This document shows, piece by piece, positions 8,009 through 29,145 of a DNA stretch of 64,000 nt. A program made the translations under genes and the position numbers. Every line of letters begins with the position of its first letter. Positions within the stretch are counted from its first letter, which is position 1. A model generated the notes under the pieces. The model made no database searches. It was given only the letters and a program-made list of their open reading frames with translations, and was not told the DNA's origin. The stretch lies in the NCBI RefSeq assembly GCF_058153355.1, contig NZ_CM177019.1. One strand, 5' to 3'.

Positions 8009-10087
8009 TTAAACCAATGCCGATTTATCAATCCCCAGTCGTTTCATCCGTGATAGCAGTGTGGTGCGTTTTAGTCCCAGACGTTGCGCCGCGCCTTTCG
8101 GCCCGGCAACCACGCCGTTAGTCTCTTTTAATACACGCACAATTAGCTGATATTCATCTTCGCCCTCCTGAGCGACGACCGTTGCAGTCGGCGGCGTTTT
8201 AGGTTCCGGTAAAGCAATATCAGGCAATGACAGCTGCAGCACGTTGCCACGTGTCAGCAATACCGCGCGCTCAATGACGTTTTCCAGCTCGCGTACGTTA
8301 CCTGGCCACTCCATATTGCTCAACGCGCGCAACGTTTCGGCAGGAATGCTGTCGATATTACGCCCCAGACGGCGGGCAATTTTAAAAGTAAAGGATTTTG
8401 CCAGCAGCGGAATATCTTCCGGACGCTCGCGTAGTGGCGGCAGGTGGATCGGGAATACGTTCAGGCGGTAATAGAGATCGCTACGGAACTCGCGGTCGGC
8501 AACCATTTTTTTCAGATCGCGGTTAGTCGCGGCAATTAAACGCACGTCCGTCTGTATAATTTTATTACTGCCGAGACGTTCAAACTCCTGTTCCTGTAAT
8601 ACACGCAGCAACTTCGGTTGTAACTCCAGCGGCATATCACCCACTTCATCGAGGAACAGGGAGCTTTTATCCGCCAGTTCAAAACGACCGATACGCTGGG
8701 CGCTGGCTCCGGTAAACGCACCACGCTCATGGCCAAACAGATCGCTTTCCAACAATCCGGCAGGCATCGCCGCGCAGTTCATTTTTACCATGCGGCGATT
8801 ATTACGCCCACTGAGATTATGGATCGCGCGGGCAATCAGCTCTTTACCAGTGCCAGTTTCACCGAGGATCAGAACTGTACTGTCACTTTGTGCCACCATT
8901 TCAACTTGTTTAAGCACGCTGTACATGGCTTCACTGCGACCAATAATCTCGCCAAATTCACTATCAACATTGTTGAGCTGCTCGGTCAGGGCGAGATTTT
9001 CATCAACCAGTCGTTCTTTCAGACGATGAATTTCCTGATAGGCAAGGGCGTTATCGACAGCGATTGCCACACGTTCAGCAATCTGGCGCAGTAAATTCAG
9101 ATTGGTCGTGGTAAACACTTTCTCTTCGCATTGCGCCAGTTTCAGCACGCCCAGCATGGTGTCGCCAGACATCAGCGGTAATAGGCACAAGGTTTGAATC
9201 TGGTTGCCCCAGGTGTCGAACAACATGCGTTCGTAAGGGGCTAAATTATCTCGCTCGTGGAGATTAATCAGCAGCATCTCTTTGCTTTTAAACACGCGTT
9301 CGGTGAGGGTTCCTGCTTCATCGACTTCGCTCTGTTCGTGAGCGGGATGCTGTTTATCAAGATAGTGAGTGGAGTAGATGTTGAGTTTGTTTTTACGGTG
9401 GCTGCGTAAGACGATGCTGATATCGTCAATGTCGAAATAGTAATGGATTTCTTTGGCGACTTCGCTGACCAGTTCGTCCATATCCAGGCGAGAAAGCACC
9501 GCGTTGGTGATGGCAACCAGGATGCGGAAGTTATCGCGTTCCCGGCATAACAACTCATAGTCGACATTATTGACGACGCGGCTCTGGATTTGTTCGGTGA
9601 CGACAGAAATGATCTGCGTAAAAGTTTGCAGGCGATTGAACTCTTTTTCACTCCACGGGCGATCGTCATAACGAATAAATTCACAGCCACCAAAAATATG
9701 CCCTTCCGCCGCCAGTGGCATCAGGCAATAGTGACCAAATTTGGGGTATAGCCCACCAGCGGCCAGCTGCGGCCAGGTTTCACAAAATTCTTCGTAACTG
9801 CAATGCAGTGTATCAGGGCGCGACAAAATGCTGCGCACCGGACCGTGTGCCAGAACAGTTTCGTCTTCATAATTTATGGGGGTGTCTTTTTCACGCGACG
9901 CGTAATAAGACGCACGTTGAGTCTGCGCTTGCCACAACACAATAGCTGCATTGTCGGCGAGCGCAGAACGCTTTACCAATTGCGAAAGAGCCTCACACAG
10001 CGAGGCCAGATCGGGCTGCTGCAATAGTGTCCGAGTGATGTCGAACAACCCTTGTTGTCCGAGATCACTCATCGGTGTATATGACAT
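8009..10087 (-). CDS. fhlA: Formate hydrogenlyase transcriptional activator (sigma54-dependent)
   Basis: 692 aa from MSYTPMSDLGQ...; GAF N-terminus, AAA+ sigma54-interaction domain ([14 protein letters not shown]), C-terminal HTH; 12-codon upstream extension rejected. Confidence 0.95.
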   Translation of the reverse strand: MSYTPMSDLGQQGLFDITRTLLQQPDLASLCEALSQLVKRSALADNAAIVLWQAQTQRASYYASREKDTPINYEDETVLAHGPVRSILSRPDTLHCSYEEFCETWPQLAAGGLYPKFGHYCLMPLAAEGHIFGGCEFIRYDDRPWSEKEFNRLQTFTQIISVVTEQIQSRVVNNVDYELLCRERDNFRILVAITNAVLSRLDMDELVSEVAKEIHYYFDIDDISIVLRSHRKNKLNIYSTHYLDKQHPAHEQSEVDEAGTLTERVFKSKEMLLINLHERDNLAPYERMLFDTWGNQIQTLCLLPLMSGDTMLGVLKLAQCEEKVFTTTNLNLLRQIAERVAIAVDNALAYQEIHRLKERLVDENLALTEQLNNVDSEFGEIIGRSEAMYSVLKQVEMVAQSDSTVLILGETGTGKELIARAIHNLSGRNNRRMVKMNCAAMPAGLLESDLFGHERGAFTGASAQRIGRFELADKSSLFLDEVGDMPLELQPKLLRVLQEQEFERLGSNKIIQTDVRLIAATNRDLKKMVADREFRSDLYYRLNVFPIHLPPLRERPEDIPLLAKSFTFKIARRLGRNIDSIPAETLRALSNMEWPGNVRELENVIERAVLLTRGNVLQLSLPDIALPEPKTPPTATVVAQEGEDEYQLIVRVLKETNGVVAGPKGAAQRLGLKRTTLLSRMKRLGIDKSALV

Positions 10088-12561: not shown

Positions 12562-13424
12562 CGCTGTGTCTCCAGCCAGTTCAGCCACTGGTCCATCCCT
12601 TCGCCGCTGGTGGCGGAAATAAGGATGATTTCAATTTCTGGATTGACTTCGCGGGCGCAGGCGATGCACTTCTCAACGTCGAAATTGAGATACGGTAGCA
12701 GGTCAACTTTGTTGAGCAGCATCAGTGAGGCGGCGGCAAACATATGTGGATATTTCAGCGGTTTGTCTTCACCTTCGGTAACGGAAAGCACCGCCACTTT
12801 GTGTTTTTCACCGAGATCGAAGCTCGCCGGACATACGAGGTTGCCAACGTTTTCGATAAACAGAATACCGTTATCGTCCAGTGGCAGGCGCGGCGCGGCG
12901 TCGGCGATCATCTGTGCGTCAAGATGGCAACCTTTACCGGTATTCACCTGAATCGCTGGCGTGCCGGTAGCGCGAATGCGCGCGGCATCGTTCACGGTTT
13001 GCTGGTCGCCTTCAATCACCGCACACGGAACGCTATCTTTCAGGCGCATTAAGGTTTCAGTCAGCAGCGTGGTTTTACCGGAACCAGGGCTGGAAACCAG
13101 GTTGAGTACCAACTGATTGCGGGCAGCAAAGCGCGCTCGGTTGCGTTCAGCCAGACGGTTGTTTTTGTCCAGCACGTCAATTTCGACTTCCAGCATCCGA
13201 CGCTGGCTCATGCCCGGCGCGTGAGTGCCCGCTTCGCCATGACCGTAATGCAGGTCGCCTTCTTCAGTCTGGCTGGGGGTAAATTCAGGCGCTTTAATGC
13301 CGGTGATTTTCATCTTCGGGCGTGCCGCCGGGGCAAATGGCGCGCTACGAAACGCGGAATGAGGGTTATGTTCATCACCCTCGATATACAGGTTGCCTTC
13401 ACCGCAACCGCATGTTGTACACAT
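12552..13424 (-). CDS. hypB: Hydrogenase nickel-incorporation GTPase HypB
   Basis: 290 aa, [11 protein letters not shown]-terminal metal-binding motif, GSGKTT P-loop. Confidence 0.95.
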
Positions 13425-13427
13425 CGC

Positions 13428-13778
13428 TCACTCCTGGTCTATTTCTATCCGCCGAATCTGTAAACCGTCGTCTGCCACAATTTGTAGCATGTCGCCATGA
13501 CACTGTGGACAGCGTCGGACGCGCTGGGTTAATAGCGTCACATATTGTTGGCATGTTTCGCACCAGCATTCGGCCTCTTGTTCTTCGAGGTGCAGTTTAC
13601 AACCTTCCGCTACGCTGCCGCGGCAAACCAGATCAAAACAAAAGGCAAGAGAGCTGGTTTCGACACAAGAAAATGCGCCAATTTTGAGCCAGACCCCAGT
13701 TACGCGTTTTGCACCGTGTTTTGCGGCCTGCTGTTCGATCAATTCCAGTGCCCGTTGGCAGAGGGTTATTTCGTGCAT
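13428..13778 (-). CDS. hypA: Hydrogenase nickel-incorporation protein HypA
   Basis: 116 aa from MHEITLCQ..., CxxC...CxxC zinc site. Confidence 0.93.
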   Translation of the reverse strand: MHEITLCQRALELIEQQAAKHGAKRVTGVWLKIGAFSCVETSSLAFCFDLVCRGSVAEGCKLHLEEQEAECWCETCQQYVTLLTQRVRRCPQCHGDMLQIVADDGLQIRRIEIDQE

Positions 13779-13806
13779 ATCGCCTCCCATTAACTATTGC
13801 CAGCTA

Positions 13807-13824
13807 CAAGCAATAATTGTGCCA
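13807..13824 (-). promoter_or_regulatory. sigma54 (-24/-12) promoter for the hyp operon
   Basis: Minus-strand reading TGGCACaattaTTGCTTG, close match to TGGCAC-N5-TTGC. Confidence 0.6.
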
Positions 13825-13850
13825 GTGTTGATTATCCCTAAAGTGAATAA

Positions 13851-13890
13851 TGTCGATGATGTCGAAATGACACGTCGACACGGCGACGAA
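13851..13890. promoter_or_regulatory. Candidate FhlA upstream activating sequence in the hyp-hyc divergent region
   Basis: Repeated TGTCGA-type half-sites tgtcgatgatgtcgaaatgacacgtcgacacgg between two sigma54 promoters. Confidence 0.4.
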
Positions 13891-13937
13891 ATTCACCAGA
13901 ATCCTAAAAATCTCTTTTATAACAATAAATTAAAAGT

Positions 13938-13954
13938 TGGCACAAAAAATGCTT
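13938..13954 (+). promoter_or_regulatory. sigma54 (-24/-12) promoter for the hyc operon
   Basis: TGGCACaaaaaaTGCTT with GG and GC spaced as in the sigma54 consensus, ~35 bp upstream of hycA. Confidence 0.55.
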
Positions 13955-13989
13955 AAAGCTGGCATCTCTGTTAAACGGGTAACCTGACA

Positions 13990-14451
13990 ATGACTATTTG
14001 GGAAATAAGCGAGAAAGCCGATTACATCGCACAGCGGCATCGTCGCCTACAGGACCAGTGGCATCTCTACTGCAATTCGCTGGTTCAGGGGATCACGTTA
14101 TCGAAAGCGCGCCTGCATCACGCCATGAGCTGTGCGCCAGACAAAGAACTCTGTTTCGTCCTTTTTGAACATTTTCGCATTTACGTCACCCTGGCGGATG
14201 GCTTTAACAGCCACACCATCGAGTATTACGTCGAAACGAAAGAGGGTGAAGAAAAACAGCGGATTGCGCAGGCACAATTGAGCATTGACGGAATGATAGA
14301 TGGCAAGGTCAACATCCGCGATCGCGAACAGGTACTGGAACACTATCTCGAAAAAATCGCTGGCGTTTACGACAGCTTATACACCGCCATTGAAAACAAT
14401 GTACCGGTGAATTTAAGCCAACTGGTAAAGGGACAAAGCCCGGCGGCATGA
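13990..14451 (+). CDS. hycA: Formate hydrogenlyase regulatory protein HycA
   Basis: 153-aa ORF in conserved position. Confidence 0.93.
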   Translation: MTIWEISEKADYIAQRHRRLQDQWHLYCNSLVQGITLSKARLHHAMSCAPDKELCFVLFEHFRIYVTLADGFNSHTIEYYVETKEGEEKQRIAQAQLSIDGMIDGKVNIRDREQVLEHYLEKIAGVYDSLYTAIENNVPVNLSQLVKGQSPAA

Positions 14452-14575
14452 GCTGAGGCTTTGCCCGTTTTGCAGGCGTTACGCCTGTTTGGGGATGGGC
14501 GTGTCGATGAGTGTCGAAAATGACATTTCATCGGCATGTTTTCGTCAAAAATGACAATCACCTGAGGAATGCCTG

Positions 14576-15098
14576 GTGAATCGTTTTGTAATTGCTGACT
14601 CCACGCTCTGTATCGGCTGCCACACCTGTGAGGCCGCCTGTTCAGAGACGCATCGCCAGCACGGCCTGCAATCAATGCCGCGCCTGCGAGTGATGCTAAA
14701 TGAAAAAGAATCTGCGCCGCAGCTCTGTCACCACTGTGAAGATGCACCCTGTGCGGTGGTCTGCCCGGTTAACGCTATCACCCGCGTTGATGGGGCAGTG
14801 CAGCTGAATGAAAGCCTGTGCGTAAGCTGCAAACTGTGCGGCACCGCCTGCTCCGGCGCGTGTCAGCACGTTGCTTGACTGGGTGCCGGGTATACGCGCG
14901 ATCGCCGTCAAATGTGACCTCTGTAGCTTTGATGAACAAGGTCCAGCCTGCGTGCGGATGTGCCCAACCAAAGCCCTGCATCTGGTGGATAACACCGATA
15001 TCGCCCGCGTCAGCAAGCGTAAGCGTGAGCTGACCTTTAACACGGACTTTGGCGATCTCACCTTGTTTCAGCAGGCTCAAAGTGGAGAGGCTAAATGA
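14576..15098 (+). pseudogene. hycB: hycB (formate hydrogenlyase 4Fe-4S ferredoxin subunit) disrupted by a frame-shifting internal deletion
   Basis: GTG-start ORF 14576..14878 (100 aa) carries three CxxCxxCxxxC motifs and stops at TGA; the rest, with the fourth motif CDLCSFDEQGPACVRMCP, continues in another frame to 15098. The paralog hydN in this window is one uninterrupted ORF. Confidence 0.7.
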
Positions 15099-28997: not shown

Positions 28998-29009
28998 GCA
29001 TTGTCATCA

Positions 29010-29048
29010 CATGTCATCGTCACTAGTGTCGATGACATCGTTTTTTCT
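29010..29048 (+). terminator. Rho-independent terminator after ascG
   Basis: Inverted repeat catgtcatcg...cgatgacatcg followed by tttttt. Confidence 0.6.
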
Positions 29049-29145
29049 GCATTGCAGAATTTAATTTCTTTAAATAACAATCAATTAAAAATTGGCATGA
29101 TTTGTGAATGTATCGGCGCATTAACTGTCATTGCTGGAGAATTTG

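Follow-up and report, generated by a model that had tools for sequence, protein, structure and literature searches.

Does an activator site lying between two divergent operons serve both of them, or only one? The question is raised by the 211-bp spacer between hypA and hycA in a 64-kb stretch of DNA (hereafter ‘the window’; 64,000 nucleotides), which contains a cluster of repeats (UAS1) resembling the sites of the formate regulon activator FhlA, and it is sharpened by the presence of a second such cluster (UAS2) between hycA and hycB. By its sequence the window is the hyp/hyc/fhlA locus of E. coli: positions 13400–14500, comprising hypB-hypA/hycA, were matched in 5,425 of 5,426 complete E. coli genomes. 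Over this segment nearly all of them were 95–99% identical and only five (5/5,426) at least 99% identical, and the rarity of such close matches over 1.1 kb points to an unusual E. coli lineage as the source strain. Gene coordinates were carried over from the closest annotated genome, which is near-identical (locus offset 6899); the RefSeq annotation shows no regulatory features at the hyp-hyc region. The genes that frame the question are as follows.

8009–10087, minus strand: fhlA, downstream of hypE (annotation transferred), coding for the activator expected at UAS1 and UAS2

13428–13778, minus strand: hypA, first gene of hypABCDE-fhlA

13990–14451, plus strand: hycA, first gene of the hyc operon, an FhlA antagonist, with hycB onward following

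All genes from hypE to hypA are on the minus strand. The gene for the cognate activator is present as well, the annotation of the near-identical genome placing fhlA (8009–10087) within the window itself.

A preliminary description of this DNA had placed two divergent −24/−12 promoters on either side of the repeats. Both are real, each corresponding letter for letter to a published sigma54 motif from ChIP-seq, for which entries exist for hycA, hypA and hydN (PMC4591121); Salmonella equivalents of the hyp and hyc sigma54 promoters have also been described (PMC3844500).

13809–13825, minus strand: hyp sigma54 promoter, CTGGCACAATTATTGCT, identical to the hypA ChIP-seq motif (PMC4591121)

13937–13953, plus strand: hyc sigma54 promoter, TTGGCACAAAAAATGCT, identical to the hycA ChIP-seq motif (PMC4591121)

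The two promoters are only about 115 bp apart. Transcription would start near 13798 for hyp and near 13964 for hyc, putting UAS1 at about −53 to −82 with respect to the former and about −113 to −84 with respect to the latter. Scans of 13700–14650 for sigma70 promoters and for terminators gave chance-level matches only. An in-frame ATG at 13788–13790 (minus strand) precedes the annotated hypA start (13778) by 12 nt, and the mechanical hypA ORF that includes it has 120 aa, as against 116; with the inferred transcription start only about 8 nt ahead of it, this upstream ATG is probably not used.

Between the promoters, tgtcgatgatgtcgaaatgacacgtcgacacgg (13851–13883) reads exactly as it had been quoted, and the repeated TGTCGA-type half-sites attributed to it are present.

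13851–13880, no strand: UAS1 core, a putative FhlA half-site array consisting, in order, of TGTCGA, tga, TGTCGA, aa, TGACA, CG and TCGACA

13843–13896, no strand: extended UAS1 in Escherichia, where the outer repeat GTGAATAATGTCG/CGACGAAATTCAC adds a sixth pentamer (CGACG, 13884–13888)

TGTCGA occurs as direct copies at 13851 and 13860, its inverse, TCGACA, at 13875–13880, and a GTCGAC palindrome at 13874–13879; the core as a whole forms a 30-bp imperfect palindrome centred near 13866, and the arms of the outer, imperfect inverted repeat occupy 13843–13855 and 13884–13896. The best description of the repeating unit is YGWCR, which is its own reverse complement, and of which six copies were found in 13851–13888 (TGTCG, TGTCG, TGACA, CGTCG, CGACA and CGACG). 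Six YGWCR units in 38 bp is the maximum for the 64 kb, equalled in 7/200 dinucleotide shuffles. Clusters of at least three TGTCG/CGACA within 36 bp were seen only at UAS1 in the window, yet at least one such cluster arose in 25% of shuffled windows, and the TGTCG-only cluster alone is not significant window-wide. The composite motif TGTCGA-N3/4-TGTCGAAA-N0/1-TGACA, on the other hand, occurs exactly twice in the window (13851–13872 and 14502–14525) and in 0/100 shuffles. A ‘terminator-like’ call at 13888–13873 was rejected, being the CGTCG/CGACG inverted repeat of UAS1 and standing at chance level in the terminator scan.

Identification of these repeats as FhlA sites draws on a 14-column FhlA count matrix derived from 13 characterised FhlA-dependent promoters (PMC7658346, after Schlensog 1994 and Leonhartsberger 2000). 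Over the 64 kb, the top score (17.4 of a possible 17.6) fell at 14512–14525 (TGTCGAAAATGACA), within UAS2, and the second-best (16.0) at 13851–13864 (TGTCGATGATGTCG), within UAS1, although for UAS1 this test is partly circular because the source sites probably include the K-12 counterparts of UAS1 and UAS2. An attempt to rebuild the 13 source sites from four K-12 control regions, posed as an exact integer programme, had no feasible solution, and the matrix was therefore not built only from those four regions or registers. UAS1 conforms both to the matrix and to the consensus TGWC-N6-GWCA, and its core is identical to that of E. coli K-12, with differences in the spacers on both sides. The FhlA helix-turn-helix domain is stated, in a passage of PMC11291172 citing Leonhartsberger 2000, to bind one side of the DNA, which fits units 8–10 bp apart.

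Conservation provided a further line of evidence. HycA relatives were collected (16 aligned), giving 80 loci from approximately 20 enterobacterial genera, and 81 distinct upstream sequences were compared. Mean column identity over these 81 sequences was 0.83 in the UAS1 core (13851–13880), about the same as in the −24/−12 elements of hyp (0.90, 13809–13825) and hyc (0.85, 13937–13953), whereas the flanking spacers were not conserved in this way (0.46 for 13826–13843, and 0.51 for 13891–13917). Positions 13881–13890, the tail of the interval first proposed as the FhlA binding region, were poorly conserved (0.41), and conservation of the outer part of the extended UAS1 was poor outside Escherichia, Salmonella and some Citrobacter. 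Invariant bases of UAS1 in an 18-genus alignment were T13851, G13852, C13854, G13864, ATGACA at 13867–13872 and C13876; members of the Klebsiella/Raoultella group have a rearranged but related array. The preliminary description had made its proposal vulnerable to a lack of conservation, and UAS1 is instead kept throughout the 81 sequences, in about 20 genera. An island at 13918–13935, holding an IHF-like box, reached 0.79.

The short hycA 5′ UTR (TCTCTGTTAAACGGGTAACCTGACA before the ATG) was also about as conserved as the promoter elements (mean column identity 0.81 over 13964–13989 in the 81 sequences), for which translational control may be one explanation.

The candidate FhlA binding region between divergent sigma54 promoters is thus supported by the matrix match, by its conservation and by the clusters at hydN and fdhF considered below. 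The hyc operon probably has its FhlA upstream activating sequence at 13851–13880 (with an extension to about 13843–13896 in Escherichia); as an FhlA site, UAS1 is already known. The claim that went further, that the region is shared by hyp and hyc, held only in part: an FhlA region does lie between both promoters, but the notion of one site serving both is not supported, in view of the hyc-like geometry of UAS1, of an IHF-like box on the hyc side only and of the existence of UAS2, and is probably wrong.

The geometry was assessed against other FhlA-dependent promoters, one of which is in the window.

29002–29110, plus strand: hydN-hypF control region, with a YGWCR cluster (29002–29037), an IHF-like AACAATCAATTA and then TGGCATGATTTGTGAA

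The cluster upstream of hydN (29002–29037) is the second-densest YGWCR cluster in the 64-kb window, and the hydN sigma54 motif matches the hydN entry of PMC4591121. In K-12, eight YGWCR units lie upstream of fdhF, and the hyfA upstream region carries such units as well. With the T of the −24 TGGCA as the reference point, clusters extend from −87 to −54 at hyc, from −91 to −60 at hydN and from −110 to −58 at fdhF; since its offset matches those of the hydN and fdhF clusters, UAS1 is in the standard FhlA position for hyc. On the other side, the hyp −24 element (13824) and the first UAS1 unit (13851) stand just 27 bp or so apart, and no FhlA promoter examined has a cluster so close. An enhancer shared by both promoters would be expected to stand at a loop-competent distance from each, with no other activator site for either; UAS1 does not stand at such a distance from both, and UAS2 (14502–14556) offers another site.

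The hydN-hypF control region can also be seen to repeat the hyc layout as a whole, with its YGWCR cluster, IHF-like AACAATCAATTAAAA box and TGGCATGATTTGTGAA in the same order. At hyc the corresponding box is:

13920–13932, plus strand: IHF-like site, TAACAATAAATTA, in the conserved island 13918–13935, between UAS1 and the hyc promoter

Its cross-genus consensus, AATCAATAAATTA, fits WATCAANNNNTTR. The box is found on the hyc side only, the hyp side having neither such a site nor a spacer. Work by Hopper et al. in 1994 is said to have located IHF binding between the hyc UAS and the hyc promoter.

Spacing across genera bears on the same point. The UAS1 core and the hyc TGGCA were separated by 48, 59–62 or 70–71 bp, a separation that changes in steps of approximately 10–11 bp, so that helical phase is kept, as expected for a face-dependent looped contact. 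The distance between the hyp and hyc promoters (loci L005–L084 and 13809–13953 of the window) was likewise 92, 102–103 or 112–116 bp, and helical phase is preserved through these changes in the length of the control region. The hyp −24 element and the UAS1 core were 42–44 bp apart in 57 sequences and 54–55 bp apart in 14 sequences with extra left units, and this tight maintenance leaves room for some functional coupling of UAS1 to hyp.

If UAS1 belongs to hyc, what drives hyp? A candidate, not named in the preliminary description, lies beyond hycA.

14502–14556, no strand: UAS2, in the hycA-hycB spacer, consisting of TGTCGATGAGTGTCGAAAATGACA, 17 nt and CGTCAAAAATGACA, with the best matrix match in the window

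All 80 loci keep GTGTCGAnnnGTGTCGAAA(A)TGACA...TTTCGTCAAAAATGAC between hycA and hycB, with column identities mostly at least 0.9, while the length of the hycA-hycB spacer varies widely between genera. UAS2 ends 20 bp ahead of the hycB start codon, and there is therefore no promoter placed to use it locally. Deletion and footprint work by Lutz et al. (1990) and Schlensog et al. (1994) reportedly identified this module as the hyp UAS and the module in the hypA-hycA spacer as the hyc UAS. On the grounds of geometry and this earlier work, UAS2 (14502–14556) is likely to be the enhancer of the hyp promoter, approximately 700 bp away. A search of the literature on the formate regulon, with the primary footprinting papers outside its reach, turned up nothing on how the two UASs are allotted to the two promoters.

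Two further features of this part of the locus were observed. A hairpin (CAGGCG-TTA-CGCCTG, followed by TTT) is present at 14473–14490, between the hycA stop codon and UAS2, and was not flagged in the terminator scan of 13700–14650. The sequence is present in Escherichia; in Citrobacter and Salmonella a spacer of similar length reads differently, and the hycA-hycB spacer of Enterobacter, Klebsiella and Kluyvera is much shorter and lacks the hairpin. Downstream, hycB (14576–15098) has an 89-bp deletion relative to both K-12 and the closest genome, with its junction at 14838/14839, between two CGGCAYCGCCTGC direct repeats. The deletion shifts the frame, such that the ORF ends at 14878 and encodes 100 aa instead of 203. 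A 100-base probe over the junction had matches in 5,419 complete E. coli genomes, none with at least 99% identity, and among the matches listed 8/8 were in two pieces spanning 189 bases; no complete E. coli genome appears to share the deletion. The deletion may be genuine, with formate hydrogenlyase function lost, or may have arisen in the assembly, and a disrupted hycB would matter for hydrogen production with this strain.

Activation of hyc could then proceed as follows. Formate-activated FhlA, a sigma54-dependent AAA+ activator, would bind as an oligomer to the five or six (T/C)G(T/A)C(G/A) units of UAS1, and IHF would bend the AT-rich spacer at approximately 13920–13932; the bend would bring FhlA into contact with the closed RNA polymerase-sigma54 complex at 13937–13953, where ATP hydrolysis would open the hyc promoter for transcription of hycABCDEFGHI. 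The divergent hyp promoter (13809–13825) would most likely be activated mainly from UAS2 (14502–14556), which is equally conserved, and not from UAS1. What the sequences themselves show is the motif of UAS1, its matrix match, conservation and position, the two promoters and UAS2; occupancy by FhlA and IHF, bending, looping and the allocation of each UAS to a promoter are steps that we infer or take from earlier work.

How do other readings of the repeats compare with this one? A chance origin, or binding by a regulator other than FhlA, might be argued from the frequency with which TGTCG/CGACA clusters arise in shuffled windows and from the chance-level status of the hairpin call at 13888–13873, yet conservation of UAS1 equals that of the promoter elements, the region matches the FhlA matrix, and YGWCR units recur at hydN, fdhF and UAS2; this reading is effectively refuted by the conservation and by the reappearance of the motif at further FhlA promoters, and we attach almost no weight to it. 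A more serious competitor is that UAS1 is a true bidirectional enhancer, from which FhlA bound at 13851–13890 activates the hyc and hyp sigma54 promoters alike. UAS1 does lie between two genuine divergent sigma54 promoters and is roughly symmetric, it keeps an almost constant distance from the hyp −24 element across genera, and the gap between the two promoters shifts by increments of a helical turn. The fixed spacing, however, may merely reflect a short, 26-bp spacer among close relatives, and the cluster is 30–50 bp closer to the hyp −24 element (approximately 27 bp) than the corresponding clusters are at hyc, hydN and fdhF. That the hyp side lacks both an IHF-like site and a spacer also tells against a bidirectional enhancer, as does the conserved UAS2 (14502–14556), which has no promoter of its own beside it and which Lutz 1990 and Schlensog 1994 reportedly assigned to hyp. 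We consider bidirectional activation from UAS1 unlikely, while regarding it as the strongest of the competing explanations.

Both modules might instead act together. In the strict form of this idea, FhlA bridges UAS1 and UAS2 across a loop of approximately 650 bp enclosing hycA, and neither promoter is fully active unless both modules are present. Both carry the 22–24 bp composite motif, they flank hycA in every one of the 80 loci, and spacing in the control region preserves helical phase; against this, hydN and fdhF manage with one cluster each, and the widely variable hycA-hycB spacer is hard to reconcile with a strict loop geometry, making joint action in this form very improbable. A looser form, in which UAS1 is not exclusive to hyc but forms with UAS2 an FhlA-bridged loop coupling hyc and hyp, each promoter being partly dependent on both modules, is suggested by the helix-face relation of UAS1 to both promoters, kept across approximately 20 genera; it too seems improbable, if less so. 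Allocation of UAS1 to hyc, rather than to both operons, is most likely the correct reading.

This is a textbook control region for the genes of formate hydrogenlyase (hydrogenase 3), and its recognition here adds nothing new on their regulation. What the analysis does provide is a correction, in that the hyp-hyc spacer probably holds the hyc enhancer, with the hyp enhancer approximately 700 bp away, behind hycA, together with a comparative map of invariant bases and of spacer-length changes in helical-turn steps.

The closest known system is the hyc FhlA UAS of E. coli itself (Lutz 1990, Schlensog 1994, Hopper 1994, Leonhartsberger 2000), with which UAS1 shares locus, core and flanking sigma54 promoters, the window strain differing from K-12 only in the non-conserved flanking spacers. 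At hydN and fdhF, as at hyc, the putative FhlA sites are YGWCR clusters 54–110 bp upstream of the −24 element, although the units differ from those of UAS1 in number, spacing and orientation; hydN, like hyc, has an IHF-like box (AACAATnAATTAAAA) directly upstream of TGGCA, whereas no IHF-like box is evident in the fdhF sequence examined. An enhancer that is shared by divergent sigma54 promoters is that of ZraR, between zraP and zraSR. The hyp-hyc region resembles it in that a divergent pair of sigma54 promoters flanks activator sites, but differs in that its promoters are only about 115 bp apart, in that UAS1 is off-centre (approximately 27 bp from the hyp −24 element, compared with approximately 54 bp from that of hyc) and in the possession of a separate second module, UAS2, probably for the other promoter.
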